From the sequence record OQ708376.1: a DNA stretch of 64,000 nt, one strand, 5' to 3'. The notes beneath the pieces were generated by a model that saw only the letters and a list, made by a program, of their open reading frames with translations, made no database searches and had not been told where the DNA came from. Made by a program: the position numbers and the translations under genes. This document shows positions 33,847-60,560 of the stretch, piece after piece; positions within the stretch are counted from its first letter, which is position 1, and every line of letters starts with the position of its first letter. The stretch is from Escherichia phage vB_EcoM_CRJP21.

Positions 33847-33856
33847 GGAAAGTACA

Positions 33857-34399: not shown

Positions 34400-34411
34400 T
34401 TTTGTGATGGG

Positions 34412-36824: not shown

Positions 36825-36833
36825 GATTATAAA

Positions 36834-37328: not shown

Positions 37329-37329
37329 A

Positions 37330-39777: not shown

Positions 39778-40223
39778 GTTACGAAAGTGCAATCAAGAAA
39801 GCAAATGATATTCTACGCGTCGTTAAATTCTTCAAAGAAAATCCTGAATACTTAGCTGATGAAAACCATGATCACGATGAGAGATTGAGACGAAAAATTG
39901 TCGCTTTATTTGACACTAATGCGGATAATTATAGTCTAATTGAGTTAGCATACGATTATATTTCATTGAACCGAAACGGCAATATAGTTAATATAGAAAG
40001 ACATGCAACTGAAGAATCTTTTAAAATTTCAGATATTTTATCCCTGAGTACTGAAGAAGGGTACTTCCAGGGTAGTACTGTTTATGAACAAGGGACACTT
40101 GACAATCTATGCACATTCAGTGTAATATATCAGAAATCTGTACTAGATGTATTTTATCTTGACACTGCTGAACTGGATACACTAACCAATTTTGTTACTA
40201 CTGAAGAGGCTACATTCGAGTGA
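39774..40223 (+). CDS. family-2 protein
   Basis: core EEGYFQGSTVYE. Confidence 0.6.
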   Translation: MSYESAIKKANDILRVVKFFKENPEYLADENHDHDERLRRKIVALFDTNADNYSLIELAYDYISLNRNGNIVNIERHATEESFKISDILSLSTEEGYFQGSTVYEQGTLDNLCTFSVIYQKSVLDVFYLDTAELDTLTNFVTTEEATFE

Positions 40224-40756
40224 TGAAAGTTAACATCAATGACTTTGATGCATTACAAGATTTATCAAAAAAGATTCGCACCATTGTACCAGTACTCAAA
40301 AAATGCAGTACTGGTTTAATCGATCCTAGTACTGTTGTTAATGAGAAGTACAATTTTCATTATGTATTACAGGGTACTGGGGCATTCCAGAAGTGTGAGG
40401 TGCGTGAGACACACGTAATTGATACATCATTGTTTTCTATTGGTGCACCTGTGTCGAATAATACTATTTTCCTAGACAACGCTGGAAATATTCAACAATT
40501 AACATTTAAGAAAAGGAAAAAGAACAATAACATTGGTGTGTATGCGATGAAGTGGGGTCAACCTGATTTGAAGCGTGAAATTCACATCCCTAAGTACAAT
40601 TACAATGCATTTGACGAACAGTGTTTTCAACTATCGTGTACTGACCCTGACTATGCTATCATTCAGTTCTATATGGAATTGCAGATAGCATTTAACAGTA
40701 ATTTGTATATTAACTTATTGGCGATGAACATCGATGAAGTATTCAAAAACATTTAA
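40220..40756 (+). CDS. family-2 protein (variant)
   Basis: core EQCFQLSCTD. Confidence 0.5.
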   Translation: MMKVNINDFDALQDLSKKIRTIVPVLKKCSTGLIDPSTVVNEKYNFHYVLQGTGAFQKCEVRETHVIDTSLFSIGAPVSNNTIFLDNAGNIQQLTFKKRKKNNNIGVYAMKWGQPDLKREIHIPKYNYNAFDEQCFQLSCTDPDYAIIQFYMELQIAFNSNLYINLLAMNIDEVFKNI

Positions 40757-40952
40757 TCGAATTGAATACATGAGAACTGTGAGTGCAGTGTGGGACATAT
40801 GGTTCACTACTAAACCAAAAATGGATTACCATGACTTTAAGCTCTTGTTCTTCGTTGGCTCTAACAAACAGGATGTTGCAATGAAGGGTTATATTCAGCA
40901 CTTACAGGAACTAATCCAGAAGAGAATATATGAAAATAATAGACCAAAATGA
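40734..40952 (+). CDS. family-1-like small protein (outlying copy)
   Basis: core VGSNKQDVAM. Confidence 0.45.
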   Translation: MKYSKTFNRIEYMRTVSAVWDIWFTTKPKMDYHDFKLLFFVGSNKQDVAMKGYIQHLQELIQKRIYENNRPK

Positions 40953-41121
40953 CATTGCTAAACTATTCAATATATATTCTACTAGAATGATGCAAACAGA
41001 CTCATATAGTACTGAATTCAAAGAGTTGAAAGTACTGATGTACTTGGGAACCCAATATCAGGAACAAGTTATTTTGGAATATATTAATTCGCTGAAGAAG
41101 GATATCCGTTATGTACGATGA
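40930..41121 (+). CDS. family-1 small protein (outlying copy)
   Basis: core LGTQYQEQVI. Confidence 0.5.
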   Translation: MKIIDQNDIAKLFNIYSTRMMQTDSYSTEFKELKVLMYLGTQYQEQVILEYINSLKKDIRYVR

Positions 41122-41671
41122 TTTAGATCTTGCGTTTGAACGTATGGTAATTTTAATGCAATGTGCAGAAATGCATGAAACAATCCGTCGCACCAAAGGG
41201 ATTGAATATACAAGTAAACTATTCTCATACGAAAGTCGTCGAGGGATGGATCATTTTTACTGCACTGATTGTTCAAAGTTTTCAGTACTGAAATATTATC
41301 ATCCTACTGTTTCCAATAATAGTTTAATATCCACATATGACGGTGATCTGTTTAGTGTAATGTATGACACATTACATCCATCAATTTCAATCTATAAAGA
41401 TTGCGATAGTAGTTTATCGTATATAATTGAAGATTACTTATCTCCTAATACTGAAGAGAATATTTTTCAGAACAGTGTGTTGCATGATGAATTAAGTATA
41501 AAATGCATCTATATGTTCAATAAGTTAAAAGAGTACGCCGATAATAATTACTTAATTGATAAGTTAGCAGTATTGTCTGTTTCCGTTTTTAATACAAATG
41601 ACATTGATATGAAATACTATAATGAGATTTGTAAAGTACATCATATGTATAAGGAACTATTATGTCAATAA
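41111..41671 (+). CDS. family-2 protein
   Basis: core ENIFQNSVLHD. Confidence 0.55.
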   Translation: MYDDLDLAFERMVILMQCAEMHETIRRTKGIEYTSKLFSYESRRGMDHFYCTDCSKFSVLKYYHPTVSNNSLISTYDGDLFSVMYDTLHPSISIYKDCDSSLSYIIEDYLSPNTEENIFQNSVLHDELSIKCIYMFNKLKEYADNNYLIDKLAVLSVSVFNTNDIDMKYYNEICKVHHMYKELLCQ

Positions 41672-42264
41672 ATGCAAATAAATGTTGTAGTGCAGATGTG
41701 CATTTGTTTTTTAAGAAATTAGCAAATGATATTATATATATGCAGGAAATGATTTATCACAAACGAGCGGATTTAGAAAAAGCATTAGTACAGTTCTCAT
41801 TTATGCTTGATGGTGATATATTTCTAGAGAGTGATGCATTGCGAATAGTATTAGACAAAAATGCTAAAAGATTTTTATTTCATATAGATAATAAATTATG
41901 TTCCTCCGTATGTCGTACTTTTTATAATCGTGATTCGGACTTATATCAATTCCTTTATGCTAAAGGTGCAGTAGAAGCATCATATGGTGATGGTTATGCC
42001 CTAGGAAATAGTATTCCATTTATGAAATCATTTAAAATAGAACACATCAGTACTGATGAAGATGCAATGTTCACAAATGATATAACTATGGGACGTGAAG
42101 ATGCAATGCGATATATTACAAATTCTATGCATACATTCTTTCAACGATCAGAATTTGATAATGTATATATATCAAATGTAAATATTTTCACTGACCTGTG
42201 TCAGTACTTGAGAAGTGTTTGTGATTTTGATGAAAGCTATTGTAAGCTTTATACTGAGGTATAA
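41662..42264 (+). CDS. hypothetical protein (possibly divergent family-2)
   Basis: track ORF; weak motif. Confidence 0.45.
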   Translation: MSINANKCCSADVHLFFKKLANDIIYMQEMIYHKRADLEKALVQFSFMLDGDIFLESDALRIVLDKNAKRFLFHIDNKLCSSVCRTFYNRDSDLYQFLYAKGAVEASYGDGYALGNSIPFMKSFKIEHISTDEDAMFTNDITMGREDAMRYITNSMHTFFQRSEFDNVYISNVNIFTDLCQYLRSVCDFDESYCKLYTEV

Positions 42265-42269
42265 AACAA

Positions 42270-42632
42270 ATGAACACATTAAGTATTACATACTATACAA
42301 CTAAAAAATTAGTTACTTGTTTAATATCATTGAAGACAAACCATGATGATATGTTTGATATGGCGGCATATGAATTAGAATTATCAGAAGATGGCTTCAA
42401 GAGCTATGAAGTATATAGCTATGTTCGTGAAGATGTAATTGACACTACACTAATGCAAGAGGATGAGTTATTCCAAGAAAGTTTAGTATGGGATAATAAG
42501 TACGATTGTAACTTTGATTTCTTATGTTTAATCCAGAAAGAAATGAAAAGAATCTTTGATAATTATCCAGTGAAGAGATTGAGTACTGGACCGGAGCAGT
42601 ACAGGAGAATTTTATTCCGTTATGAAGACTGA
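42270..42632 (+). CDS. family-2 protein (subfamily B)
   Basis: core DELFQESLVWDNKY. Confidence 0.6.
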   Translation: MNTLSITYYTTKKLVTCLISLKTNHDDMFDMAAYELELSEDGFKSYEVYSYVREDVIDTTLMQEDELFQESLVWDNKYDCNFDFLCLIQKEMKRIFDNYPVKRLSTGPEQYRRILFRYED

Positions 42633-42957
42633 ATTAGTGAAAGTAATGTACGCTACTCATATTAAACTACTACTTGTGAAATTTGATTATAATAAAAAAC
42701 ATAATGATTTCTATACTTTAATTCGTGATGAAAATACATTCTCCTTGCGATGCAACAATATACCGTTGAAGATAAATGATTTTACTTCACTTGACGAGGG
42801 TGAATTATTTCAAGAATCATTAGTTTTTAATAGTAATATAAAAATTGATATAGAAGTTATTAAAAAATACCAGATTTTATTGAACAAAATTATGAATTGT
42901 TATCCATGTGAAATAGGAGGTCATATGCAGTTCAAATCAAAAATGTATGAATTATGA
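42622..42957 (+). CDS. family-2 protein (subfamily B)
   Basis: core GELFQESLVFN. Confidence 0.55.
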   Translation: MKTELVKVMYATHIKLLLVKFDYNKKHNDFYTLIRDENTFSLRCNNIPLKINDFTSLDEGELFQESLVFNSNIKIDIEVIKKYQILLNKIMNCYPCEIGGHMQFKSKMYEL

Positions 42958-42964
42958 GGTTTAT

Positions 42965-43501
42965 ATGTTAGATGAAAAAATGAACAATGGAACACAATAT
43001 AATCATCTTAAGTTGGATACATTCGAATCAGCTATCAGTACTGCACAAGATATAATTGATATTATCAAGTTCATTAAAGAAAATAAGTTCAAATGTTTGA
43101 AAATACTAAATCGTTCAATGTACCGTGATAACAATATTCATGTATCAGTACGTAGACCGAAAGATAAAGAAAGTGGGAGAGATTTCTATAACAACAGTGA
43201 GCAGTTCGAATGTGAATATGATCCAGAATTCAGAGGCGGTTTCATGTGTTACAGTATAAAGGATACCTCACACATTGAGATACGTTCATCGAAAGGTGGC
43301 ATACGTACATTAGAGTTCATTGATATAGTTTTAAATCAGGAATACTACTTTCAACTATCATTATTGTTTCCTGCATACGATTTAGGAGTTCTATTCATGT
43401 ATAAGTACTTTTATGAGCACTGGAATGAAGACTTCTATCTGGACTTAGAAGATTACCAATTAGTTTGGAAAGAAATGGTAGAACTTCGCAATCCCTCTTG
43501 A
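42965..43501 (+). CDS. family-2 protein
   Basis: core QEYYFQLSLLF; ATG after GAGG. Confidence 0.55.
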   Translation: MLDEKMNNGTQYNHLKLDTFESAISTAQDIIDIIKFIKENKFKCLKILNRSMYRDNNIHVSVRRPKDKESGRDFYNNSEQFECEYDPEFRGGFMCYSIKDTSHIEIRSSKGGIRTLEFIDIVLNQEYYFQLSLLFPAYDLGVLFMYKYFYEHWNEDFYLDLEDYQLVWKEMVELRNPS

Positions 43502-43518
43502 CACCCACCGATTCTTTG

Positions 43519-43527
43519 TGATATAAT
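43519..43527 (+). promoter_or_regulatory. extended -10 promoter element (TGaTATAAT) followed by leader hairpin 43528-43550
   Basis: no clear -35. Confidence 0.4.
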
Positions 43528-43560
43528 CCCTTTATATTAATTGTAAAGGGTTATAACACA

Positions 43561-44037
43561 ATGTCCAAAGACCTATCATTTAGCAATGCACAAAAAATAG
43601 CAAAAGACATTATCAGGGTTTATAAATTCCTTGCGAATGTTACTGAAGATTTTTCCGTGGGGGAACATAAAGTTATTAAACGAAATGGATACCTTTCATT
43701 TATGGATGGGTTACTCTATAGTTCAGATGAATCAACTTGTAGCATTAGAGTACTTGATGAAGTACCAAGTGGTGATTTTATTTCATACCATTTTCCAAGT
43801 TCAGATAATTTCAAATACTACAATCATCTTCTTATAAATGAAGCATTTAATACGATTGTAATTAACACTGAAGAAGAGTTCTTCCAGTACAGTACTGTGT
43901 ATCCAGAGAGGATTGTTTTCAGTTCAGTGATTTTAACAGCCCTTAAAAATGAACTAAATTCCGATAGTGATCATTTCTACTTGGACCTGAACAATGTCGA
44001 TTGTATTATTGAGTACCTGGAGAAAAATGGTTTATGA
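43561..44037 (+). CDS. family-2 protein
   Basis: core EEFFQYSTVY. Confidence 0.6.
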   Translation: MSKDLSFSNAQKIAKDIIRVYKFLANVTEDFSVGEHKVIKRNGYLSFMDGLLYSSDESTCSIRVLDEVPSGDFISYHFPSSDNFKYYNHLLINEAFNTIVINTEEEFFQYSTVYPERIVFSSVILTALKNELNSDSDHFYLDLNNVDCIIEYLEKNGL

Positions 44038-44519
44038 TTACTACAGAATATGATTACTATGGTGTTTTAGAATTTACAGAAAATATCTATCGCATTGCAA
44101 AGGAGTTCAGAAGTCCTAAGCCTTTTGGTGGAATGCCTTTTGGTGGTATGTTTCAATACGATGAGTTCAGTTCATCTAAAGGAAGACTAGCATTTACTAA
44201 TGGTAGAGGTAATCAAATCTACGCGGAGTACTTTGATGATAATGACTTTCATTACAAAGCCGAATACATTTCATATTGCCCTGGGTCTGATTTGAAGATT
44301 AATATTGATACATTTAGAGAAGCAGTATTTGTTCCGTATAATGATTTAGTCTTCATGTCAGAGGAAATGTACTTTCAGGGTTCTTGTATTCATGATGTAA
44401 AAGTACTTAATGCTATGTTATTTTATGGTGCACTACTTAATCATTACAAATACAATCAACGATTCTTTTTAGATTTAGCAGTCTACTATAAATGCGTGGA
44501 TTATTTGAATGCAAAATAA
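44034..44519 (+). CDS. family-2 protein
   Basis: core EEMYFQGSCIHD. Confidence 0.6.
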   Translation: MITTEYDYYGVLEFTENIYRIAKEFRSPKPFGGMPFGGMFQYDEFSSSKGRLAFTNGRGNQIYAEYFDDNDFHYKAEYISYCPGSDLKINIDTFREAVFVPYNDLVFMSEEMYFQGSCIHDVKVLNAMLFYGALLNHYKYNQRFFLDLAVYYKCVDYLNAK

Positions 44520-44871
44520 GAAAACAATTCAGTACATGACGGATGGCAATGAATGCTTTGCTTCAAGATATGAATTCAACAAGAACCATTTCGTAACCTA
44601 TATCCCTGAATATAATCAGTTTTATCTACAGATTTACCAAAATGATTCATATATGAATGAGATATATTCTGAAATAAAAATCCCGGATTATAGTACTTTA
44701 TCAGAAGAGGAATTGTTTCAGCAGAGCACTATCAGTACTGAAGATGTGTATGAAATAATGGAATACCAGAAGGTACTTAAATATTTCCATGAAGTTCAGG
44801 ATATACAAATGGATAGTGTTAAAGCGTGGAATTATAACACATACGAGGTAAATTATGTTCGAAATGATTAA
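44509..44871 (+). CDS. family-2 protein
   Basis: core EELFQQSTIS. Confidence 0.55.
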   Translation: MQNKKTIQYMTDGNECFASRYEFNKNHFVTYIPEYNQFYLQIYQNDSYMNEIYSEIKIPDYSTLSEEELFQQSTISTEDVYEIMEYQKVLKYFHEVQDIQMDSVKAWNYNTYEVNYVRND

Positions 44872-45268
44872 AATTATGCAACGATGTATTGTAGACCAAC
44901 ACGGGATATATGGATATCGTTTAAGTGCTCCTATTGACAAAAATAAAACAACCTATGTAAGCTATAATGCTGTACAAGGATTTGATATATTCATTGATGC
45001 CAACAATAAAATCAAACAAGCTAAGGATGTGTCTATAATGACCCCTGACGAGCTATTTCAGTACAGCTTAGTTCTGCCTACCTGTATTGATTTACAACGT
45101 CTAGGAGCTATACAGAAGGTTTTACGCGAACATAAAGTACAACCCAATAAAGTCACACACATTCCAGAAACAATCTTCAAAACCATAGAAGTAGAAACTC
45201 CTGATTATATGTTAAGTGATGATGAGTACTACGAGAAACACTTCCCTGGTAAAGTTTGGAGAGACTAA
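44855..45268 (+). CDS. family-2 protein
   Basis: core DELFQYSLVL. Confidence 0.55.
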   Translation: MFEMIKIMQRCIVDQHGIYGYRLSAPIDKNKTTYVSYNAVQGFDIFIDANNKIKQAKDVSIMTPDELFQYSLVLPTCIDLQRLGAIQKVLREHKVQPNKVTHIPETIFKTIEVETPDYMLSDDEYYEKHFPGKVWRD

Positions 45269-45750
45269 TGAACCGAAAGTACAGAGAAACTATGAAGTTC
45301 GCTAAGGAGTGTTTAGAGACAGTTGATTTCATTTTCGATAACAAAGACTCACTGGGTCATCACTTCGTAATTACAAAGAAAGAAGATAAGAGATACAAGT
45401 GTGAAAGATTAGGATACAGTATTGAGTTCTCCTTAATGATTGATGGAATGATAAACTCCTTATATGAATGTGGTAAGACTGATTACCTTTCATTTAGATC
45501 ATGGAGTGAAGGTATCATGTTCTTGAGAACAAATGGAGTTTTATATCCGTTTCTTGATGATTTATCAGAAGAAAGTTACTTTCAAAATAGTTTAATTTAC
45601 ACAGAAAAAGAACTCAAGATGCTATTCATTATGTCGTACTTTAAAAAGTACTGCAAATTTAATACATTATCTTTTGAGATTTCTGCAATGAAAGTATTCA
45701 TTAAAAATGTAAAAGAATTAAAGAGGGCTTTTAATGTACATAGAAAATGA
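45256..45750 (+). CDS. family-2 protein
   Basis: core ESYFQNSLIY. Confidence 0.6.
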   Translation: MERLMNRKYRETMKFAKECLETVDFIFDNKDSLGHHFVITKKEDKRYKCERLGYSIEFSLMIDGMINSLYECGKTDYLSFRSWSEGIMFLRTNGVLYPFLDDLSEESYFQNSLIYTEKELKMLFIMSYFKKYCKFNTLSFEISAMKVFIKNVKELKRAFNVHRK

Positions 45751-46276
45751 GAATGTAAAATGCATTACTGACATTTGTATAAAATTAATGAAAATTTTCA
45801 TTAACCCAAAATACAAGACTCGTTCTTTACATCATAATATTGATGAGCATTGTACCATTAATATACTAGGTAGTATTCTTGATGTAAAATATGATGGTAA
45901 AATGTTATTCGGTATAAGAGAAGAGAAGATAGATGATGCATTCTTTTCTTCTAAAGATAAATTTGAACCTTCTGATTATAAAGTGATTATTCGTGATGAT
46001 AGCATCTATATTAGTAGTGATTATTCAAATTACTTCGATAAAATATACACTGAAAACGTTGACTACCATTATGAAATGATTGATTTACCAGTAACAGACA
46101 TTGATATGGAGAGAATCAAATTTTCATTATCAGATAATGAGTACTTAGGTATACAAACATATTATTCACTACAAGGAAAGATTCCACCTGCTATGTATAT
46201 AAGGATTGAGATTGGTAATGTATTCAATGATAAGGTTATATCAATTGCTGATAAAATATTGAGGGTTGAATTATGA
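45734..46276 (+). CDS. hypothetical protein (possibly divergent family-2)
   Basis: track ORF; degenerate motif. Confidence 0.45.
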   Translation: MYIENENVKCITDICIKLMKIFINPKYKTRSLHHNIDEHCTINILGSILDVKYDGKMLFGIREEKIDDAFFSSKDKFEPSDYKVIIRDDSIYISSDYSNYFDKIYTENVDYHYEMIDLPVTDIDMERIKFSLSDNEYLGIQTYYSLQGKIPPAMYIRIEIGNVFNDKVISIADKILRVEL

Positions 46277-46836
46277 ATATCAATGATTACCAATTTCATA
46301 GGCTTGAATTTCGTCATTGTGTTGCATTTGCAAAAACATTGATGTGCATCATTGACACTCTTTCATCCAAACAATTTCGTAAGGATAATGATTTATTTCT
46401 GAAAAAAGGTCGTGTAACATCATCCGATATCAGTGTTGAACTATTTGTTGATATCAGTGTTGATACCGGAGACAGTACAAGGGTTGGTTGTATAGGTCAT
46501 ATTGGTACACATTGCTTCACATGGAATCCAAATACAAGTCAAGTACGAATTGATTATAGAAATTCACGTTGGGTTGATCTTAGTACTGAATCCGATTTAG
46601 AATCAGCTATGTTCCAGCTAAGTTTAATTCACAATCCTAATGAACTTCTTTACATTATTACTTTCAGTTATCTGTTACAAAACTACGATAATCCATCAGG
46701 GTTTTTCATAGAATCGGATATAGAAGAAATTATGGAAGAGTTTCCTAGTTTAAAGGATATTCTGGAAGAAAAAGATTTCTATGAAGACTTCAGAGATTTA
46801 TACGACATGCACTTGGAGTTATTTAAGAATGGATAA
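46273..46836 (+). CDS. family-2 protein
   Basis: core SAMFQLSLIHN. Confidence 0.55.
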   Translation: MNINDYQFHRLEFRHCVAFAKTLMCIIDTLSSKQFRKDNDLFLKKGRVTSSDISVELFVDISVDTGDSTRVGCIGHIGTHCFTWNPNTSQVRIDYRNSRWVDLSTESDLESAMFQLSLIHNPNELLYIITFSYLLQNYDNPSGFFIESDIEEIMEEFPSLKDILEEKDFYEDFRDLYDMHLELFKNG

Positions 46837-47347
46837 AGATGATATTCTAATTAGACTAATTAAGAGTTTAATAAAGTTCTCAAATAATGATGTCGATACA
46901 TACAAAGTAGGGGATATTGAATTCAAATCATTTGGTATGTACGGTGAGGACAAAACATATTATGCGTCAATGAAATTTCAAGATTTTCACGAGATGTTAA
47001 TATCGTTATCATATGAAGATGTTGATCCAAGATGGAGTTCCAGTATTTCACTATCGAGAATGGTAATTCGTAGTAAGCATCGTTACATTTCGTCAAAGAA
47101 TACTCCTAACTTGATTAATATTGTGTTGAATGAAAATACCAATCCTATATCTAAACTTGATATCGTACCGTTAACCGATGAAGTACTTTTTCAATTGAGT
47201 ACCATTTGTGATGAAGATGTGATATCATGTATGAAAATTTATGAGAAGGTTGGGAGTGATATTCCCATGAACTATTACCTAACTATAGATGGAACGTACC
47301 TTCGAGATGAGGTTCTAGCGTACATTGACAGTGTTTTACCAAAATAA
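46829..47347 (+). CDS. family-2 protein
   Basis: core EVLFQLSTICD; internal ATG chosen. Confidence 0.55.
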   Translation: MDKDDILIRLIKSLIKFSNNDVDTYKVGDIEFKSFGMYGEDKTYYASMKFQDFHEMLISLSYEDVDPRWSSSISLSRMVIRSKHRYISSKNTPNLINIVLNENTNPISKLDIVPLTDEVLFQLSTICDEDVISCMKIYEKVGSDIPMNYYLTIDGTYLRDEVLAYIDSVLPK

Positions 47348-47370
47348 AGACCCGTATGGGTCTTTTTGTG
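47346..47370 (+). terminator. rho-independent terminator
   Basis: AAAGACCC-gtat-GGGTCTTT + TTT. Confidence 0.7.
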
Positions 47371-47378
47371 TTTATGGC

Positions 47379-47407
47379 TTTACAAGAGCATTCAGGTGTG
47401 TTATACT
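47379..47407 (+). promoter_or_regulatory. internal promoter (TTTACA, 17 bp, TATACT)
   Basis: consensus-like boxes after terminator. Confidence 0.5.
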
Positions 47408-47434
47408 TGATTTTAAATAGAGTTGGAGGAATCT

Positions 47435-48001
47435 ATGAGTACTGAATTAATTAAAGAAGTCACATTACTTCTGAAGCATTGTTTTAAGTTCATTCCTGAT
47501 ACTGGTTCCCGCCAGTACATTAAAGTCAATGAGAAATATAACATCAATATCCTTGCATCCGAAACTGCAAGCAGTTATGCTAACATTGAGTTGGATTCTG
47601 AAGAAAAATATACAGTATTACAAATCATATCAGATGTACAACGTAAACAAGATTATCGTTCTTCATTTTACAACGATCATCTGTGTGTTTGCTCAAACTT
47701 CAGTGAGAATAAAATTGTGTATAAGAATTTATACACACATGAAGTGATTGATACATATAATTATAAAATTTCATCTGATGAATACAATGTGCTAATGTTC
47801 AACGCAAACCTTTTGTATGATGCCAGTACTGTACGCTGTTTAGAGTTAGCATATAAAATTCCAAAGATCATGGAAAGAAAAGATTTGATTCACTTTAAAA
47901 CTATTTTAAAATACAGTACAAAAGAATTAGAGGATTTAGTACAGGCTCTTAAGAATTTCATTAATGAACATGTACCTGTTAAATTCGAGGATGCACAATG
48001 A
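47435..48001 (+). CDS. hypothetical protein (possibly divergent family-2)
   Basis: ATG after GGAGG; degenerate motif. Confidence 0.5.
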   Translation: MSTELIKEVTLLLKHCFKFIPDTGSRQYIKVNEKYNINILASETASSYANIELDSEEKYTVLQIISDVQRKQDYRSSFYNDHLCVCSNFSENKIVYKNLYTHEVIDTYNYKISSDEYNVLMFNANLLYDASTVRCLELAYKIPKIMERKDLIHFKTILKYSTKELEDLVQALKNFINEHVPVKFEDAQ

Positions 48002-48582
48002 ACCATATCAGAACTAAAATTTTGAGACTCATGCATGACATTGCAGAACTTTCAGAGATTCATGACATTACAGAAATTGTTGAATTTGATGATTATCGAC
48101 TGAAAATTGAAAACAAATCCAAACATCGTTTTGGATCAGTTCAGTTGGATGTATATAAAACTTATGAATTTTCTAAAAAAATTAAAAGTTCATGGGATAC
48201 GATTACTATGTACATTCGCACATCCAGAAATCGTGAACGTATTGGTTCTATTTCTTCTAATATGGTATTTGCGAATGCATTACATGAAAAAATGAATAAA
48301 ATTGTAGAATCTGATTTCAGTGAAGATGATGGTTTTATTGGGTTGGATGTTCCACCAGAATTAGACCAAAGTGAAGATATTCGAGATGCATTCATTTTCC
48401 AGAAATCATTGTTGGACAATTACAAAGAATTCGAGTACTTAATGCTTTGTTACGATACTGCAAAAGTTCTTGATTGTGGTGAACTAGTTATGTACAATGA
48501 TTTTATCAATTACAAGACTGATGTTCTGAATACACTACTTCAAAATATAGAATCGGTTAAGGAAAAATATGAACGCTTATAG
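47998..48582 (+). CDS. family-2 protein
   Basis: core AFIFQKSLLDN. Confidence 0.55.
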   Translation: MNHIRTKILRLMHDIAELSEIHDITEIVEFDDYRLKIENKSKHRFGSVQLDVYKTYEFSKKIKSSWDTITMYIRTSRNRERIGSISSNMVFANALHEKMNKIVESDFSEDDGFIGLDVPPELDQSEDIRDAFIFQKSLLDNYKEFEYLMLCYDTAKVLDCGELVMYNDFINYKTDVLNTLLQNIESVKEKYERL

Positions 48583-49147
48583 TTATATGACAGAACGCCA
48601 TCAGTTATTATATGATATCAGTACAAAAATGTTATCAATTGTTAGTAGTGCAAAAGAAATTGAAAAACAATACCTCATCCGTGATGTAGCAATTTCATCT
48701 AAATGTTGGTCCAATGAATATTACGATCACGGTATTCTTACTATTTCTGGGGCTAGAAATATTTGTATTGTAAAAAATAAAAATAAAAGTAATGAAGAGT
48801 GTGAGATTATAACCGATATACAAATTAAGGATGATGGAAGTTTTTCACACCACCCATTCCATATTAGTACTATTGGTGTTTTATATAATATTAAAGTACT
48901 ATTCGGTGATGAAGAGTATGTGTTAAAAGCCATCAATCCAGATTCAAGTACAGTTGAAGAAGAACTGTTCCAGATGAGCACTGTTATACCTGAAGAGGTT
49001 CTTAGTACTGTTATTTTTTGTAGTTTAATTTATCATGAATACAAAAAGTACCAGTTCGATTTCCACATGTTAGGAACATACATCTTCAATAATTTGAATG
49101 TAGATCGTTTAACAGCATTAAATGCAGCAATGGATAAGGTGCTATAA
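48569..49147 (+). CDS. family-2 protein
   Basis: core EELFQMSTVI. Confidence 0.55.
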   Translation: MNAYSYMTERHQLLYDISTKMLSIVSSAKEIEKQYLIRDVAISSKCWSNEYYDHGILTISGARNICIVKNKNKSNEECEIITDIQIKDDGSFSHHPFHISTIGVLYNIKVLFGDEEYVLKAINPDSSTVEEELFQMSTVIPEEVLSTVIFCSLIYHEYKKYQFDFHMLGTYIFNNLNVDRLTALNAAMDKVL

Positions 49148-49575
49148 TGACAAGAGATGATTGTTTGTACATATGGGATATAATTGAAACTACACTTTCA
49201 AATCCAGAAAATTATAAAACAAAAAAAAGACAACGACACAAAATATGGATAGATTTGTTCGTTGAGGGCATACACGCAGTGACTATCTGGGATTCACCGA
49301 GGGCATCATCATCTACTCTGTTGGACAATGAATGCATTGATTGCATTAATTCCACTTTTCATCTCTACGGTACTACAATTTTTGGTACATTTCTGGATAT
49401 TGAAAGTAAAGATGATATTGATTCACTTGCGTTACAATACCAAGTACTATATAATACTAAATTAATTTACGATTTAGTACTAGCTTCTTATGTGTATAAA
49501 TTAATGATGAAATATAATCATATTTCTGTTTCAGTTTATACTAAGGATATTCTTTCATTAAGAGACAAAACATGA
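49147..49575 (+). CDS. hypothetical protein (possibly divergent family-2)
   Basis: LALQYQVLYN variant. Confidence 0.45.
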   Translation: MTRDDCLYIWDIIETTLSNPENYKTKKRQRHKIWIDLFVEGIHAVTIWDSPRASSSTLLDNECIDCINSTFHLYGTTIFGTFLDIESKDDIDSLALQYQVLYNTKLIYDLVLASYVYKLMMKYNHISVSVYTKDILSLRDKT

Positions 49576-50081
49576 GTTTATTAAATGCACGCGAATTGGT
49601 TGAGATGTATGAGATTTTGTCTTCATATAAAAATTCTCATGGAGATGTGATTCTCGACAAAAAGTTCCATGTCAGTGTTGAACATATATCAAATATAGAT
49701 ATGATTTCTTTGGTGGAAAGTAATAAGTCAGGTCTTGAACGCGATATCATGCGTTTGATTTATATTCCCAAACCATCATATACTAATGATAGTTCAATTA
49801 GTAATGAGACATTCATGTATAGTCCCGGTACGGATTCTACTATAGTATCGCTGTCCAATAAATCAATGGATACTTTCCAATTCATATATACCAGTACTGA
49901 TAACATTGAAGAAATTGAATTTCAAAACAATACATTAAGTCCATGTAGTAGTGTTATAACCTTTATGTCATATCTATGGTCAACTAAAACAAGTGCTGTT
50001 GTATATAGTTCAAATTATACACAAGATAGTATTGTTGAATCATATAAAGTTCTAAAGGAATACTATGAAAATAACAAATGA
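49572..50081 (+). CDS. family-2 protein
   Basis: core EIEFQNNTLS. Confidence 0.5.
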   Translation: MSLLNARELVEMYEILSSYKNSHGDVILDKKFHVSVEHISNIDMISLVESNKSGLERDIMRLIYIPKPSYTNDSSISNETFMYSPGTDSTIVSLSNKSMDTFQFIYTSTDNIEEIEFQNNTLSPCSSVITFMSYLWSTKTSAVVYSSNYTQDSIVESYKVLKEYYENNK

Positions 50082-50646
50082 TTTTATTAAAAGTGTAGTA
50101 CACCCTATGCTTAGTATTATGAAAAAAATACAGAATCTACCGGAAGATAACGATTACAAGTTTAATCGTTTTGATTCAGATGTGTTTTGTATTGAAATTG
50201 AAATTAATAACAATCGCAATTTACATTTAAAATTCAAAGAATCTTCGAGTCCGTACTACAACTTTGATATGAATTTTAAAATAGATACTGACATTGAAGA
50301 AAACATAATATCAAATCATACTAGCAAAAATGGTTTTATGCATAGAACTACTATGTACAATAATAAAAATAGTATTATATCTAAATGGAATCAACAATTC
50401 ACTAAAATTTGTGAAATTGAATATAATGATTTTGGTGAAGAACATTACTTTCAGTTAAGTACAATTCATGAACTTCCACCATATGATTATGTTAAAACAT
50501 GGTTTGATATTCATAATATAATTGATGATGCAATCAAACTTCCATTTGGTGTGTCAATATCATATACTGCTCCTAAAACATTTGTTTTTACTGAAGATAT
50601 GATTATGAAAAAGATATGGGCAATCATCCCACTTATGATGGATTAA
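50065..50646 (+). CDS. family-2 protein
   Basis: core EHYFQLSTIHE. Confidence 0.55.
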   Translation: MKITNDFIKSVVHPMLSIMKKIQNLPEDNDYKFNRFDSDVFCIEIEINNNRNLHLKFKESSSPYYNFDMNFKIDTDIEENIISNHTSKNGFMHRTTMYNNKNSIISKWNQQFTKICEIEYNDFGEEHYFQLSTIHELPPYDYVKTWFDIHNIIDDAIKLPFGVSISYTAPKTFVFTEDMIMKKIWAIIPLMMD

Positions 50647-50660
50647 ATTTGTACCAGGGG

Positions 50661-50689
50661 TTGACTCTGGTTTTTTTGTATGATACATT
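50661..50689 (+). promoter_or_regulatory. candidate internal promoter (TTGACT + weak -10)
   Basis: follows short hairpin and T-run; RBS AAGGAG before 50708. Confidence 0.35.
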
Positions 50690-50707
50690 GTTCTCAAGGA
50701 GAATTTT

Positions 50708-51259
50708 ATGAACTACAATCATGATCTTTTTACATTATGTGCATCCAAATGTGTTGAAGGATGGGCAGATAAAATCAATACCATAATTCATCGATATCTC
50801 GTCTTTAGTTCCCGTGCACGAAGTGAGGGGGCTATGGATTTCAAATATACACTATCTATTGATGGTGTAACTATCCATGCAGACGAAGAACGTCTGAACA
50901 TTAATTTGTATGATTCCTGTGTATTTGCTATTCACCAAAAGATGGGGAAAGGATGGGGTTGTAATAACATTAACTCCAAAGCTATCTTTTGGGTTGGTCA
51001 CCATCAGACAGTACTTGATCCTTCAATCAAATCTAATCTTTTATCCGATAATATGGTTTATGATTTATTGTACTCCGAAGAACAACATTTTCAGTTAAGT
51101 ACATTGCATGTTCTGGCACAGTACGAGGATTGTTACAAAACATTAGAACTATGCCATTCCCTTGAACTTAAAGATAAATTAATACAAGTTTACCCTTCAT
51201 TCTTTCATGAAGAAGTCCAAAGTACACTAGATCATATTTTATATGGATACGATAAATGA
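50708..51259 (+). CDS. family-2 protein
   Basis: core EQHFQLSTLH. Confidence 0.6.
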   Translation: MNYNHDLFTLCASKCVEGWADKINTIIHRYLVFSSRARSEGAMDFKYTLSIDGVTIHADEERLNINLYDSCVFAIHQKMGKGWGCNNINSKAIFWVGHHQTVLDPSIKSNLLSDNMVYDLLYSEEQHFQLSTLHVLAQYEDCYKTLELCHSLELKDKLIQVYPSFFHEEVQSTLDHILYGYDK

Positions 51260-51858
51260 GAAAAAGTTATCAAGAAGCTATTGACTTAATTCGTGAAGTT
51301 ATCAAGGTGGCTCCTGCTGCTATTGAGTTCAAGAAGTCCATATACAAGAAGTATGGGTCAATGTCGAGTATGTGCTTTCAAAAGAAACGTAGAGCATTCA
51401 CTACCCAGTACTGGAATGATTCTATCATCCTGAGCAATGAGACTCAGCGTATTTTAACACTAGAATCTGAACCTAATGAGTACGGGGAAGGAAACATTTG
51501 TGTACCTGATTATGATGAAATTAACTTCAACTGCGGTGATTTTGAAACAACATTATTACTTCATGAGGGTTATCCAGAAGGTGATGTATTAGCTGAATAC
51601 AATCCAAAAACTAAAATTCTCAAAAGAGGAATTCAGTTCACTATTAATAACAAAGATGATGTTGAAGCAGCACTGATGCAACTGAGTACAAGTGAACCTA
51701 TCACTATTAGTGTAGAAGAGTTATGGGGAATTATTTCAGTACTCAATGAGTGCTACAAAGTAAAATCATTGCGTAAACACAGCATTATATTACATACCAA
51801 TATGGCAAATATAAAATGTAAGCACATTCAAGAAATGGTGGTTCCAGATGGACTTTAA
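51256..51858 (+). CDS. family-2 protein (variant)
   Basis: core AALMQLSTSE. Confidence 0.5.
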   Translation: MRKSYQEAIDLIREVIKVAPAAIEFKKSIYKKYGSMSSMCFQKKRRAFTTQYWNDSIILSNETQRILTLESEPNEYGEGNICVPDYDEINFNCGDFETTLLLHEGYPEGDVLAEYNPKTKILKRGIQFTINNKDDVEAALMQLSTSEPITISVEELWGIISVLNECYKVKSLRKHSIILHTNMANIKCKHIQEMVVPDGL

Positions 51859-52432
51859 AGAAATTGAAAGTAAATTAAAGTACTTCAAAGATATCAAACT
51901 TCTTTGGAAAAAGTATAAAGTTGATTACAATTTCAGTGATGATGAGACAATAAAATACATTGAGATTAATATCAAAATCAAGTTCAAGAATAATAATTAT
52001 GGTGAAGTAACCTTAAATCATACTGGTATATCACTCAAGGACTATGATGGTACAACACTCGCATATTTTGACTTCACACCAGAACCAGGTGAAACACTAC
52101 TTAGTGAGATAAATTCCTATGACATGGAAGTGTTCGGCGGGAATCCGTTACTGTTCCGACTTTCTGAAGAGTGGAGTGAAGAGTACTACACTTACAAAGA
52201 TGGTGTAGTACTTGACATTCATGGAGAAGTTGTGAATGACTTGGAAGAACGTTTGTTCCAAGAATTGTGTGTTTCAAATACTTCATATGCATACAATCAT
52301 ATCCTTGACATGTTTGATTTATATAGTAAAATAGATGCTGAAATGAAGGCACATGGTATTCATTACCTTACAATTAACGACTATGCTCAACTCGAAACCG
52401 CTGTGAAAGCATTGACTAAAGTACTGAAATAG
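51848..52432 (+). CDS. family-2 protein (variant)
   Basis: core ERLFQELCVS. Confidence 0.5.
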   Translation: MDFKEIESKLKYFKDIKLLWKKYKVDYNFSDDETIKYIEINIKIKFKNNNYGEVTLNHTGISLKDYDGTTLAYFDFTPEPGETLLSEINSYDMEVFGGNPLLFRLSEEWSEEYYTYKDGVVLDIHGEVVNDLEERLFQELCVSNTSYAYNHILDMFDLYSKIDAEMKAHGIHYLTINDYAQLETAVKALTKVLK

Positions 52433-52441
52433 GAATGAAAT

Positions 52442-52855
52442 ATGAAACTGTATCATGCGAGTACTGTAAAAATTGATAACTTTTATATCCCGTATGGTGG
52501 TCTTCATATGGGAGGTAAACACAGTGCTTTGGAAGCTGCATTACGCAAGCTGAGAAGCCCACTGAACGTAGTAGACGCATGTACAGTATACTTGCATACC
52601 TTAGAAGTTGATGTTGATAACGTGCTTCTGTGTGAAGATTTAGGCAGTGATGATGAGTGGCGTTCACTTATTGAGAATTGCACTGCTCAAGGTTATGATG
52701 CTGTTCAGTACAAAAATGATTACGAGCCAGACAATGTTCCTAGCTTTATGATTTGGGATGCATCTAAAGTTCGCATCATTGAAGTTGATGCTATGCATAT
52801 GGATGAAGCTGAAATGATTATCGAAGATTTTCTTGATGAATATGAAGGTGTATAA
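52442..52855 (+). CDS. hypothetical protein with possible ADP-ribosyltransferase-like motif
   Basis: N-terminal KLYHASTV...GGLHMG recalls the H-containing strand of H-Y-E ART folds; speculative. Confidence 0.3.
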   Translation: MKLYHASTVKIDNFYIPYGGLHMGGKHSALEAALRKLRSPLNVVDACTVYLHTLEVDVDNVLLCEDLGSDDEWRSLIENCTAQGYDAVQYKNDYEPDNVPSFMIWDASKVRIIEVDAMHMDEAEMIIEDFLDEYEGV

Positions 52856-53391
52856 TGACTGACCCGATGGTAGCACTGGCACGTACTAAGTTACTATTAA
52901 AGATTGGTGAGATTTTTACGGTTCTTCTGTCCAATAATATTGATATTACTGAGCTAGATATTAAGCAACCGTGGGAAGTGACTATGTTCTCGGCGTTCCA
53001 CCGATTGTCATATAAAGGTGAAAGTGTTCTTGATTTTAACCCTAAAGCAAAATTCATAGATTATGCTGCGTTGTACAGAGAGTTGCACCGAAATATTTAT
53101 TCCGGTTGTATAACCAATAACTTCAAAGAAATTAAAGTTCAAACTGCATCACATGAGTTCAATGATTTACTTTATCCAGAATTTAATCTAACGGAAGAAT
53201 TACTCTTTCAGTACTCGTTAATTCTCACAAATCTCGAAACGCTAGAGTACTACAAAGAGTTAGTAGATATTTTTATGAATACACGACTTTCAAAAGATAT
53301 TGTGATATTCTGGTATACAGAGCATGTTACGGAGGAATTGCTTACTGAATTTCTTCTAAATATGACAGCTATAAAGGAGAAGTTATGTTAG
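52855..53391 (+). CDS. family-2 protein
   Basis: core ELLFQYSLIL. Confidence 0.55.
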   Translation: MTDPMVALARTKLLLKIGEIFTVLLSNNIDITELDIKQPWEVTMFSAFHRLSYKGESVLDFNPKAKFIDYAALYRELHRNIYSGCITNNFKEIKVQTASHEFNDLLYPEFNLTEELLFQYSLILTNLETLEYYKELVDIFMNTRLSKDIVIFWYTEHVTEELLTEFLLNMTAIKEKLC

Positions 53392-53858
53392 ATATTTTAG
53401 GAAACATCGATACTGCAAATTATTTTATCCAGGACGCACTGTTCAATACAGTTCAACAAGGATTAGAAGTTCGTCATAACGTTTACCAAGGTGATGGTTA
53501 TTTCGTTGATATTGTTGAGGCACGAAAGAATACGTTTAATGTTAACATTACAACACTGGGTAGACAGAACATTGCACGAATTTTAGTAAGTAAAGATGAA
53601 ATTGTATTGAGATACAGTGCTAAGTTTATGTTGACTTATAAGAAAAAAACTGATATGTTCAGTACTAATTTATTTGATGAGCCATTTGACCTTGAAGATA
53701 TTGAAGCTACTTTCTTTACTCAAAGTACTATGGTAAAATACACTGATGTTCAATTTTCTGCTGATGTAATGTCGGAAACATTACAAATGATCAAGGTATT
53801 ATTTTATGCATTTGAGCAATTTAGAGAAGAAAGAAACAAGGTTAACAACCACAGATGA
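53385..53858 (+). CDS. family-2 protein (variant)
   Basis: core ATFFTQSTMV. Confidence 0.5.
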   Translation: MLDILGNIDTANYFIQDALFNTVQQGLEVRHNVYQGDGYFVDIVEARKNTFNVNITTLGRQNIARILVSKDEIVLRYSAKFMLTYKKKTDMFSTNLFDEPFDLEDIEATFFTQSTMVKYTDVQFSADVMSETLQMIKVLFYAFEQFREERNKVNNHR

Positions 53859-54219
53859 ACTAATAGAGGCGATCACTAAGGAGTCAAAATACCACAAAGG
53901 GATTCGTCTATATTTTATAGATATTGGTTCAATGGAAGGCATATACATTTATGGTTCACAATCTTTATCTTATGATGTAATGCCAAAAAAACATGTAAAA
54001 ATCTTTTTAGGTTCAGATAAAAAAACTTTCTTGACAATTAATGATAAAAACGTTATTATGAATTCGTTGGGTCATGATAAGGTGGAAATTGATCTAAACA
54101 CACTGGAGGATATTGATTTTTTTCAATACGAGTGTTTAGGTGTTGACTTACATGGCATTAGTAGCGATATGATAAAATCATTAATCAAATATTTCGAAGG
54201 TGTTCATAAATGTATCTAA
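53806..54219 (+). CDS. family-2 protein (variant; start uncertain)
   Basis: core IDFFQYECLG. Confidence 0.45.
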   Translation: MHLSNLEKKETRLTTTDELIEAITKESKYHKGIRLYFIDIGSMEGIYIYGSQSLSYDVMPKKHVKIFLGSDKKTFLTINDKNVIMNSLGHDKVEIDLNTLEDIDFFQYECLGVDLHGISSDMIKSLIKYFEGVHKCI

Positions 54220-54707
54220 CTAAATCAATGAAAAATTCATTTGATAAAATCAAGAGTTGTCTTGATGGGGAAAATATTACAAGTGTTACACAAACTGCTG
54301 ACCAAATTCAAAGCAGTTCAAGTGATTGTACTGTTATTTTAGGTTTACATAGTCTACGTTTATCAATAGTAAATAATATTGACAACACTGCTATTGTAAT
54401 CACACCATGCCATATTCAAAATGAGAATGGTGTATATCTTCATCACATGGGAACAGTATTTCATATTTTCAATACAAACGAAAACATTGTTAAGGAATAC
54501 AAATCTCTTAATATTGATTCAGGTGAATTATTTCAAATGAGTACTTTGTACTCATGTAATTTTACAGATACTTCATGTATTTTGCCATTTTTCTTGGAAA
54601 TTATTAAGAAAATGGAAAATTTAAAACGTGAATACAATAAAGAAATGGTTCCTGAAGCTATATTAAATATTACTAATGCTATAGAGAAGTATAATGCAGT
54701 GACTTAA
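54210..54707 (+). CDS. family-2 protein
   Basis: core GELFQMSTLY. Confidence 0.55.
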   Translation: MYLTKSMKNSFDKIKSCLDGENITSVTQTADQIQSSSSDCTVILGLHSLRLSIVNNIDNTAIVITPCHIQNENGVYLHHMGTVFHIFNTNENIVKEYKSLNIDSGELFQMSTLYSCNFTDTSCILPFFLEIIKKMENLKREYNKEMVPEAILNITNAIEKYNAVT

Positions 54708-54749: not shown

Positions 54750-55223
54750 ATGGAGATTAAAACTGTTGAAAATGGGAAAATTGATGACATTTTAGAGTTG
54801 GACGCATTCAAAGTTCATGATATAATGTTTAATGTGAAGGACATTATTCAATGTCTATTTTTGTGTAGCAAGACAATGCATGATTTTTTTCACAACCCAA
54901 ATACTAACGTTTTTATACTAACAATCAGTACTGAAAACTCGTTTATCATGGGTATGCCTATGAGTACAAATGAACAATATATTGATTGTGTTATTCGTAA
55001 TAACGATAGTATTACGCCACAATCTGAAGTACGTAAAAAGAAAAACACCTACACAATCAAAGATGATAAAATTATGATGTGCTGTAGTAAAGGGTTTATA
55101 TTAGATAATTTTATCGTCAAAGACAGTTATCACGACTTTAAAGTGTCTGAAAATCAATCCAATGTAGTTCTTTATGCGAGTGACATAGAAAGTCTAACAG
55201 TTAAAGATCCCAGTTTGGAGTAA
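54750..55223 (+). CDS. hypothetical protein (157 aa)
   Basis: track ORF; no family motif. Confidence 0.5.
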   Translation: MEIKTVENGKIDDILELDAFKVHDIMFNVKDIIQCLFLCSKTMHDFFHNPNTNVFILTISTENSFIMGMPMSTNEQYIDCVIRNNDSITPQSEVRKKKNTYTIKDDKIMMCCSKGFILDNFIVKDSYHDFKVSENQSNVVLYASDIESLTVKDPSLE

Positions 55224-59508: not shown

Positions 59509-60030
59509 ATGTCGAAGAAGGATGCTTCGAAAAAACATTCAGTACATTTTAGTACTGGAAAAGATAACTGGACAACTCCAAAGGATTTCTTTGAAGATTT
59601 GGATGAACTCTGGGAATTTACACTAGATGCAGCATGTGTCAAAGAAACTGCATTGTGTGATAATTTTTTCACTCCAGAAGATGATTCACTGTCACAGGAT
59701 TGGGGAAATAATATAGTTTGGTTGAATCCACCATATAGTGACTTGAAAACTTGGTTATCCAAAGCAGTAGATGCATATAATAACGGGGCAACTGTAGTTA
59801 TTCTTGTACCCTCAAGAACCGATACAATTGCTTTTCAGGATTATGCTGCTAAAATATGTGATTGTATTTGTTTTATTAAGGGAAGATTGAGATTTGGTAT
59901 ACCAGAAGAACCCGATAAGAAAACAGATTCAGCACCATTTCCTTCGTGTCTGATAGTACTGGATAAGTACTTAACCACTGCTAAAATCAATTATCTTAAA
60001 TCTCTTGGGTTGGTGATGAAGAATTTATGA
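59509..60030 (+). CDS. phage-type DNA N6-adenine methyltransferase (Dam-like)
   Basis: WTTPKDFFEDL N-terminal motif and NPPY catalytic motif. Confidence 0.7.
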   Translation: MSKKDASKKHSVHFSTGKDNWTTPKDFFEDLDELWEFTLDAACVKETALCDNFFTPEDDSLSQDWGNNIVWLNPPYSDLKTWLSKAVDAYNNGATVVILVPSRTDTIAFQDYAAKICDCICFIKGRLRFGIPEEPDKKTDSAPFPSCLIVLDKYLTTAKINYLKSLGLVMKNL

Positions 60031-60560
60031 AAGAAACATGCGTATTAACTTTTGGACGTGTTAATCCCGTACATCGTGGACATGGTTTAGTTTTTGAAAA
60101 GGCCAAAACATTACAAGAACAGTACAATGCTGATTTAAAAATATATCTAAGCACCAGTACTGACAATATAAAAAACCCACTCCCACCTGAACTAAAAATG
60201 TATTATACAGAGGGATTCTATCCTTCAGTGCAAGAGAACATCTACACAGAAGACAATCTATTTGATATAATGAGAGAACTGGATGGAAAGTACTTAGATG
60301 TTCTTTTCATATGTGGTTCTGACCGTATTGATTCTTTTCAAAAAACTCTTGACATGTACAATGGTAAGTTGTATAATTTTTGTAGTATAAAAGCAATTCA
60401 AGCAGGTATTGACCGTAATGTAAGTCAATATAGCTCAACACAAATGCGTAACTTCGCAAAAAATGAAGATTTTGATAGTTTTCGTGAGTTTTTACCTGGA
60501 AATGACGAGGACTTAAAAATACAATTATTTGAAGACGTTATAAAATACATGAGGAAATAA
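60027..60560 (+). CDS. HxGH-motif nucleotidyltransferase (NMN adenylyltransferase-like)
   Basis: TFGRVNPVHRGH resembles GxFxPxHxGH; SSTQMR resembles the ISSTxxR motif. Confidence 0.5.
   Translation: MKETCVLTFGRVNPVHRGHGLVFEKAKTLQEQYNADLKIYLSTSTDNIKNPLPPELKMYYTEGFYPSVQENIYTEDNLFDIMRELDGKYLDVLFICGSDRIDSFQKTLDMYNGKLYNFCSIKAIQAGIDRNVSQYSSTQMRNFAKNEDFDSFREFLPGNDEDLKIQLFEDVIKYMRK

Follow-up and report, generated by a model that had tools for sequence, protein, structure and literature searches.

What does the small open reading frame (ORF) at positions 52442..52855 of Escherichia phage vB_EcoM_CRJP21 encode? The ORF lies in a 64,000-nucleotide stretch of record OQ708376.1, referred to here as the window, and an earlier note on this DNA had proposed, from the N-terminal motif KLYHAS...GGLHMG, that its product of 137 amino acids (aa) has the fold of an ADP-ribosyltransferase (ART) of the H-Y-E class. 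The ORF is the orthologue of gp404 of phage 121Q, and its product is called gp404 in the following. By its sequence profile, gp404 is a free-standing member of a distinct subtype of ART domains that are otherwise found inside the giant polyvalent proteins of phages and conjugative elements (ART-PolyVal, Tox-ART-HYD2 clade). It is probable, in our view, that gp404 is a small, single-domain and catalytically competent mono-ADP-ribosyltransferase dependent on nicotinamide adenine dinucleotide (NAD+), which is not packaged but made in the cell and acts on a host macromolecule. That such a phage encodes a protein of this kind is unsurprising, since more than 40% of jumbo phages have been found to carry ARTs (PMC9503650), and an orthologue is already named 'putative ADP-ribosyl transferase' in two GenBank records, one from phage ph0011 and one from phage Muenster (CPT_Muenster_123, with the note 'Hhpred 4GV2_A 99.8%'); a literature search found no paper naming this gene family. 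New here are the connection with one particular His-His subtype among ART-PolyVal-like domains, a partial link to AcrIF11, the strong constraint on the gene within a hyper-variable region and the absence of its product from virions.

Fold and family of gp404

An AlphaFold2 model built from an alignment of 32 homologues (mean predicted local distance difference test score, pLDDT, 90.5; predicted template modelling score, pTM, 0.84) comprises seven strands and three helices, and the modelled arrangement is that of the ART superfamily, with a split β-sheet core, strand 1, strand 2 leading into a helix, and ART order among the later strands. Foldseek searches of the PDB place MbcT, PARP2/4, tankyrase, AcrIF11 and RES at the top, and the pseudo-PARP folds of TASOR, RCD1 and PARP13 are among the structural matches as well. 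The matches among the viral models of BFVD include many proteins labelled 'ART-PolyVal-like' or 'PolyVal ADP-ribosyltransferase', N4-like virion RNA polymerase and MuF fusions. The ART-like fold proposed from a short motif is thus borne out by the searches of both the PDB and the viral models, as well as by the profile links to ART-PolyVal described below; the lack of any ART-fold match, which the earlier note had set as the finding against it, was not observed. In BFVD, jumbo phages including the Rak2-like Yersinia phage fHe-Yen9-03 also encode distinct, larger ART-PolyVal-like proteins (~170-200 aa; e.g. A0A2C9D1N7 with 199 aa), and some jumbo phages may carry more than one ART.

At the sequence level, the sole direct family match of gp404 is to PHROG 11632, a family with unassigned function. 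The link to ART-PolyVal (PF18760) is indirect and runs via intermediates only, as gp404 itself does not reach the gathering threshold of this Pfam family (31.2 bits). Two alignments underlie the comparisons, a close set of 32 homologues and a wide set of 91 sequences with 19-74% identity. Searched against 1.84 billion representatives, the profile of the close set finds 121 related cluster representatives, most of which are stand-alone proteins of 115-150 aa and several of which measure 2,500-3,700 aa. Two of these giant relatives were scanned whole, and both carry Pfam ART-PolyVal. Furthermore, ART-PolyVal is the best Pfam family for all ten intermediate sequences that were scanned, either as matched stretches or as whole proteins (22-40 bits, three of the ten above the gathering score), and 11 of the 91 aligned family members match it. 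A direct search with the protein or the 32-sequence alignment against PADLOC, which holds models of defence systems, gave nothing meaningful. RecA matches among PDB sequences (E 6.6e-9) were rejected as an artefact, in which a 5-bit match is summed over six fused RecA copies in one chain.

Alignment of the domain copies revealed that single polyvalent proteins hold two ART flavours, a canonical one (VYHGT...GFYFGS...GYEGIVIDH...EYVAF...QIKSA) and a second one that includes gp404 (YHG[ST]...G[IV]HFG[TS]...D.G...W...GYDG[LI].Y.N.YE...SY[VI].F). When the Rak2-like stand-alone group is compared by hhalign with twelve embedded domains of the second type, the match reaches 99.5% probability (E 7.7e-23, 108 columns), and H5, H22, D66, W73, Y90, N92, E95 and S101 are all paired with invariant residues of the embedded domains. 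This full-length profile homology places gp404 in the 'HFG...W...YxNxYE' ART subtype that is embedded in polyvalent proteins. The polyvalent proteins P0129, P0094 and P0102 carry several ART copies of both the Y-type and the H-type, some without the strand-1 His (YTGT, YRGT), and the sequences of these copies suggest that polyvalent proteins may mix active and degenerate ART modules in one polypeptide. A word-indexed search seeded with a canonical ART-PolyVal copy gave no matches, and four canonical-type copies were too divergent to place the published 'strand-5 Asp'.

With ART-PolyVal, gp404 shares the fold, the phage origin and profile-profile homology to a subset of the domains, together with the strand-1 motif [VL]YH[GA][ST], a G-x-[HY]-F-G strand 2, a GYD[GA]-h-x-Y strand and a final S/E-[YF]-h-h-[FW] strand. 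By contrast, gp404 is a stand-alone protein of 137 aa and not a module in proteins of 1,000-3,700 residues, it was not detected in virions, it lies beyond the reach of the Pfam model and it has a His for the strand-2 Tyr. In addition, its subtype has the invariant motifs D-x-G...W and Y-x-N-x-x-E, which the canonical copy of the same polyvalent protein lacks. The ARTs of polyvalent proteins were described with His in strand 1, Tyr in strand 2 and Asp in strand 5, assigned to the Tox-ART-HYD2 clade and predicted to modify host proteins (Iyer et al. 2017, PMC5512222). Given the His at strand 2 and the extra motifs, the H-Y-D configuration as published is therefore not present in gp404. Nor does gp404 qualify as a polyvalent protein itself, since these are large proteins of 2-15 domains that are packaged and injected (Iyer et al. 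2017), whereas gp404 consists of a single domain.

The predicted active site and its chemistry

Over the wide set of 91 sequences, G24, D66, W73, Y90, N92, E95 and S101 are invariant, and H5, G20, H22 and A29 are nearly so. The invariant residues cluster at the elements expected for an NAD site, which are encoded as follows:

52454..52462, + strand: codons of H5-A6-S7, closing predicted strand 1 (residues 2-7); counterpart of the NAD-binding H-G-S/T motif found in PARP, diphtheria toxin, AcrIF11 and ART-PolyVal
52496..52516, + strand: codons of G19-G20-L21-H22-M23-G24-G25, containing predicted strand 2 (residues 21-24), with helix 26-38 next
52637..52660, + strand: codons of D66-x-G68-x4-W73, at the start of helix 70-83; subtype-specific, with a co-linear W92 in AcrIF11
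52709..52744, + strand: codons of Y90-K-N92-D-Y-E95-P-D97-N-V-P-S101, covering the end of strand 87-91, a loop and the start of strand 101-104

The N-terminal motif highlighted in the earlier note is indeed conserved, with H5 present in at least 90% of the sequences and G19, G20, L21, H22, G24 and G25 invariant in the 32 close homologues. The counterparts of H5 (L-Y-H-A-S) in the alignments are H7 of AcrIF11 and the Y-H-G-[ST] His of the embedded ART-PolyVal domains, and H5 thus supplies the strand-1 His of the H-Y-[EDQ] clade; the corresponding H-G-S/T motif of PARPs has been tabulated (PMC7955679). H22 aligns with the Tyr of G-F-Y-F-G in the canonical copy of the same polyvalent protein, and would stand where PARPs and the canonical ART-PolyVal copy, with G-[IV]-Y-F-[AG], have their strand-2 Tyr. 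D66 and W73 are found in 91 of 91 sequences, with G68 invariant among the close homologues. The segment from residue 90 to 101 is the candidate site of the third catalytic residue: E95, six residues before S101, is the only acid that is invariant over the 91 sequences, and D97 is invariant only in the close set. Judged from the alignments, the site is best described as H-H-(N/E) and appears more like AcrIF11 than the classical H-Y-E. The assignment to the H-Y-E class in the earlier note therefore stands as far as the ART fold and the strand-1 His are concerned, but not for strand 2, where a His occupies the position of the canonical Tyr.

In the proposed mechanism, strand 1 (L-Y-H5-A-S) and strand 2 with its helix (G-G-L-H22-M-G-G...S-A-L-E-A-A-L-R) would form the NAD+ pocket, and the invariant Y90-x-N92-x-x-E95 loop preceding strand 101-104 would provide the residue that activates the nicotinamide-ribose bond, so that ADP-ribose can then be passed to the target. 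The virion would not contain the enzyme, which would be expressed in the cell from a long block of small genes that all run in one direction, and a host macromolecule, most likely a protein, would be mono-ADP-ribosylated. The purpose may be to redirect the host machinery, as for T4 ModA/ModB, or to disable a defence system, as for AcrIF11; the data favour neither.

Of these two precedents, AcrIF11 (PDB 6KYF, PF26151) is an anti-CRISPR mono-ADP-ribosyltransferase that modifies N250 of Cas8f, and has been described as an active ART of the H-H-D type in which D115 is essential (PMC8120803). Its sequence was confirmed against 6KYF, and an alignment of the AcrIF11 family was built for hhalign. The comparison with the gp404 family gives 94.9% probability (E 4.8e-8), limited to the N-terminal 30 columns, and at relaxed stringency continues co-linearly via W73/W92 and GY[DT][AS]V, placing D115 opposite N92. 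AcrIF11 differs, however, in that full-length homology is not seen at normal stringency, its catalytic Asp being aligned with an Asn of gp404, and in its host range and target, the type I-F Csy complex of Pseudomonas. Membership of gp404 in the AcrIF11 family was not found, as judged by the lack of a match to PF26151 and of a profile match to 6KYF.

The likeness to ModA, ModB and Alt of T4 is one of functional analogy: these are small phage ARTs that are made (ModA/ModB) or injected (Alt) early and modify the RNA polymerase and the translation factors of the host. In jumbo phages that depend on the host polymerase together with a phage sigma factor, ARTs are predicted to be directed at that polymerase (PMC7824862), and phages of the 121Q/RaK2 group do use the host enzyme with a phage sigma factor (PMC11895373). 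By contrast, the T4 enzymes belong to the R-S-E clade with an Arg-Ser-Glu site, no sequence relationship to gp404 was detected and they are not among its top structural matches; the strand-1 Arg, the S-T-S motif and the E-x-E of the ARTT (ADP-ribosylating turn-turn) loop that mark this clade are absent from gp404. With PARP and diphtheria toxin (H-Y-E) gp404 has in common the H-G/A-S of strand 1, a G-h-[Y/H]-F/M-G strand 2 followed by a helix, and the order of the seven strands, and the HHpred match recorded by the annotators of phage Muenster is to 4GV2; but it is far smaller, has no helical regulatory domain or acceptor loop, and carries the His and Ser substitutions at the Tyr and E988 positions.

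Several observations weigh against a catalytically competent transferase made in the infected cell. Neither gp404 nor any of the 32 close homologues has a Pfam match, even at E <= 10, and no solved structure is matched by sequence or profile with the protein or the alignments; the profile of the 91 sequences finds chance-level matches only among PDB sequences (rhodocetin, E 0.26). The strand-2 Tyr expected of the H-Y-[EDQ] clade is replaced, and the position that corresponds to E988 of PARP by strand topology is the invariant S101 and not an acid, so that activity hangs on the candidate role of E95, N92 or D97. The best structural neighbours, MbcT and RES, are NAD+-degrading toxins and not transferases. 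As to expression, absence from virion proteomes is negative evidence, since low-copy proteins are easily missed, and the promoter-like site upstream of the gene at 52305-52332 says little, as the promoter scan returned 82 sites where 80 are expected by chance.

The top fold matches suggest that gp404 could instead be an NAD+-consuming hydrolase or phosphorylase, which, like MbcT and RES, would cleave NAD+ to shut down host metabolism or to disturb NAD-derived immune signalling. The resemblance to MbcT, ParT and other RES toxins is high but concerns the fold only. The R-E-S signature (strand-1 Arg, Glu, Ser) is absent, strand 1 having a His as members of the H-Y-[EDQ] clade do, and profile links lead to ART-PolyVal and the N-terminus of AcrIF11 but not to RES. 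Furthermore, no antitoxin-like partner is evident nearby, with no antitoxin-like Pfam matches in the neighbouring ORFs, and a phage with ~35 Mb of DNA to synthesise per cell would presumably itself suffer if NAD+ were drained. We therefore regard NAD+ degradation as improbable. The two histidines could also point to an ART that acts on DNA or RNA of the host or the phage, as DarT, Scabin or Tpt1-type enzymes do. This is unlikely to a similar degree, because the R-H-R-R tetrad of Tpt1/KptA (H-H-h clade) is not conserved, with only R35 invariant and this only in the close group, because ARTs of this kind rank far below protein-modifying ARTs in both fold searches and because the ART-PolyVal clade has been grouped with protein-modifying ARTs (Iyer et al., PMC5512222).

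Equally little probability attaches to gp404 being a catalytically dead ART fold that acts by binding, as a decoy, as a sponge for NAD or ADP-ribose derivatives, or as a steric inhibitor of a host factor. The invariant Ser in place of the canonical third acid at the start of the penultimate strand, the missing strand-2 Tyr and the pseudo-PARPs among the structural matches are all consistent with such a role. Dead enzymes, however, usually lose pocket residues, whereas in the 91 diverged sequences and in the embedded domains there is no change, or hardly any, at H5, G20, H22, G24, Y90, N92 and E95. The H-H-D set of AcrIF11, which is an active enzyme, is non-canonical in a similar way (PMC8120803).

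The transferase favoured here is probably synthesised in the infected cell, where it would act on a host target, since orthologues are absent from three published virion proteomes. The phAPEC6 orthologue gp408c (95.6% identical) is not among the 62 virion proteins identified by mass spectrometry (table of PMC7247149), and neither CBB_59 nor RaK2 ORF435 is named anywhere in the text of the papers reporting the CBB and RaK2 virion proteomes. An effector injected with the DNA, as T4 Alt or the ARTs of polyvalent proteins are, is highly improbable given these absences, the position of the gene among small non-structural genes far from the morphogenesis clusters, and the lack of a MuF, portal or other packaging-associated fusion. 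A literature search found no transcriptome of a phage of the 121Q/RaK2 group.

A conserved gene in a fast-evolving neighbourhood

The segment 51000-54500 matches Asteriusvirus jumbo coliphages, including JP4, G17, Sharanji and 121Q, over its full length at 99.1-99.7% identity (megablast), and the window thus belongs to an Asteriusvirus jumbo phage of the 121Q group. The protein is 100% identical in at least 11 isolates, among them 121Q, G17 and JP4, and tblastn finds homologues in 74 phage records, which cover Asteriusvirus, Alcyoneusvirus (RaK2, K64-1, Muenster), GAP32, CBB and Serratia BF, as well as Yersinia fHe-Yen9, the Erwinia SNUABM phages, Salmonella 7t3 and Munch, and three Vibrio phages of ~135 kb. 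The ratio of nonsynonymous to synonymous substitution rates (dN/dS) of the gene is 0.105 relative to phage ph0011, compared with 0.012 to 0.32 for neighbouring genes, and 52442..52855 is a real gene under purifying selection. The ORF is present exactly as the earlier note had described it, with a ribosome-binding site of its own:

52431..52434, + strand: Shine-Dalgarno-like AGGA, 7 nucleotides 5' of the ATG, read directly from the sequence
52442..52855, + strand: 137-aa ORF with ATG start, orthologue of 121Q gp404; its product is a free-standing protein with the ART fold, in the ART-PolyVal-like domain subtype 'HFG...W...YxNxYE...S'
52855..53391, + strand: downstream 178-aa ORF, whose ATG overlaps the stop codon of the ART gene (TAATG); no Pfam match

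The AGGA overlaps the TAG stop codon of the upstream gene (52430-52432), and the TAA of the ART gene shares one base with the ATG of the next gene, so that the ORF is packed into a string of co-directional genes. The downstream ORF is probably translationally coupled to the ART gene.

The earlier note had also described the gene as a non-family member that interrupts an array of related genes. The first part agrees with the searches, since BLASTP and jackhmmer give no relative of gp404 among the other ORFs between 28 and 60 kb. When all 61 ORFs were compared with the ART profile by hhalign, gp404 reached a probability of 100% and every other ORF stayed below 5%. The 'family-2 array' around the gene, by contrast, was not recovered: the ORFs at 47423..54707 show no mutual similarity by BLASTP or jackhmmer, and each falls into its own PHROG. 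Apart from their size, these flanking ORFs (~160-200 aa) have in common only a short motif of the type hFQ[LM]ST, spotted by eye about two-thirds along their length. They were also considered as diverged ARTs or as partners of the ART, and rejected as such, as they have no Pfam matches and stay below 5% against the ART profile. A much clearer paralogue array lies at 29397..49147, where 24 co-directional ORFs (~100-190 aa) form one family (BLASTP 1e-3, single linkage).

Most of the flanking ORFs have no BLASTP-detectable orthologue outside Asteriusvirus, although the corresponding places in distant relatives are taken by ORFs of equal size; the flanking ORFs thus look like extremely fast-evolving positional homologues. 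In distant relatives (34-55% identity) the ART gene keeps its place within a run of ~180-210-aa ORFs. It is one of only three genes in the 46-55 kb region that BLASTP recognises in all five distant syntenic loci, whereas most of its neighbours are not recognisable in all of them. The gene is a conserved island within a fast-evolving neighbourhood. Two 157-aa ORFs downstream (53385..53858 and 54750..55223) are likewise recognisable in five of five distant loci and are under very strong constraint (dN/dS 0.044 and 0.012); they have no Pfam family and are candidates for functional partners of the ART or for independent core genes. A 43-aa ORF at 55226..55357 matches Pfam DUF7230 (E 9e-17), and stays a few genes downstream of the ART gene in the distant loci L003, L005 and L006. 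A macrodomain, ARH or antitoxin gene adjoining the ART gene was looked for and none was found.

On a larger scale, the ART gene is part of a ~60-kb one-directional block of small genes, in which ORFs for modifying enzymes are found at 11432..11788, 15757..16398 and 59509..60030. Upstream of the ART gene the block holds a GNAT acetyltransferase (37 bits, above threshold) and a weak protein-kinase-like ORF (17.5 bits, below threshold), and downstream a Dam-type N6-adenine methyltransferase (109 bits), a nucleotidyltransferase and an HD phosphohydrolase; the annotation of ph0011 places a DksA-type zinc-finger protein in the corresponding block. The 177-aa ORF at 60027..60560 has weak cytidylyltransferase-like and flavin adenine dinucleotide-synthetase matches, and its Muenster orthologue is annotated as a nucleotidyltransferase (HHpred 5JBN, 99.9%). 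The label 'ribonucleotide reductase A / NrdB' of the 121Q orthologue is probably a misannotation. As its enzyme fold includes nicotinamide mononucleotide adenylyltransferases, it is conceivable that the product of this ORF is linked to the supply of NAD+.

Hairpins resembling intrinsic terminators are enriched about threefold (12 observed versus 3.7 ± 2.1 expected from shuffled sequence), with examples on the + strand at 47346-47365, 50653-50671, 55335-55355 and 57369-57397; those at 47346 and 55335 read as terminators on both strands. The hairpins appear to cut the gene string into units, with the ART gene in a unit from ~50.7 to 55.35 kb. The promoter-like site at 52305-52332 (+ strand, TTGACA-16-TAAAAT) matches the sigma-70 consensus at 11 of 12 positions and lies 110 nucleotides 5' of the ART start, within the preceding gene. 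It is kept in ph0011, and the Muenster orthologue has an independent TTGACA-17-TATTAT upstream.

Meaning for jumbo phages and ART domains

ADP-ribosylation is a central currency of phage-host conflict, as seen with T4 Alt, ModA and ModB, with AcrIF11 and with DarT. A further-reaching proposal, which we hold only tentatively and consider rather unlikely to be right in full, is that the 'H-H-(N/E)' proteins (hYH[GA]S, G-h-H-F/M-G, D-x-G...W, Y-x-N-x-[YF]-E...S-[YF]) represent an unrecognised ART clade that bridges ART-PolyVal and AcrIF11, and whose members serve partly as modules of injected polyvalent proteins and partly, in Rak2-like jumbo phages and some Vibrio phages, as free-standing proteins. 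The free-standing forms would then, like AcrIF11, be anti-defence enzymes, inactivating an immune complex of the host through ADP-ribosylation. If this were true, the hyper-variable small genes around the ART gene could belong to the same counter-defence arsenal.

For the annotation of ART domains, the comparison indicates that the Pfam family ART-PolyVal misses a well-defined subtype with a predicted His-His active site, which comprises at least 121 clusters at 50% identity, and modelling this subtype would improve the annotation of jumbo phages and polyvalent proteins. More than 80% of the genes of giant phages of the 121Q/RaK2 group are without an assigned function, and gp404 gains a testable one. 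As a conserved ART of only 137 residues that is not packaged, it offers a convenient handle on the host process or defence that these phages must neutralise.
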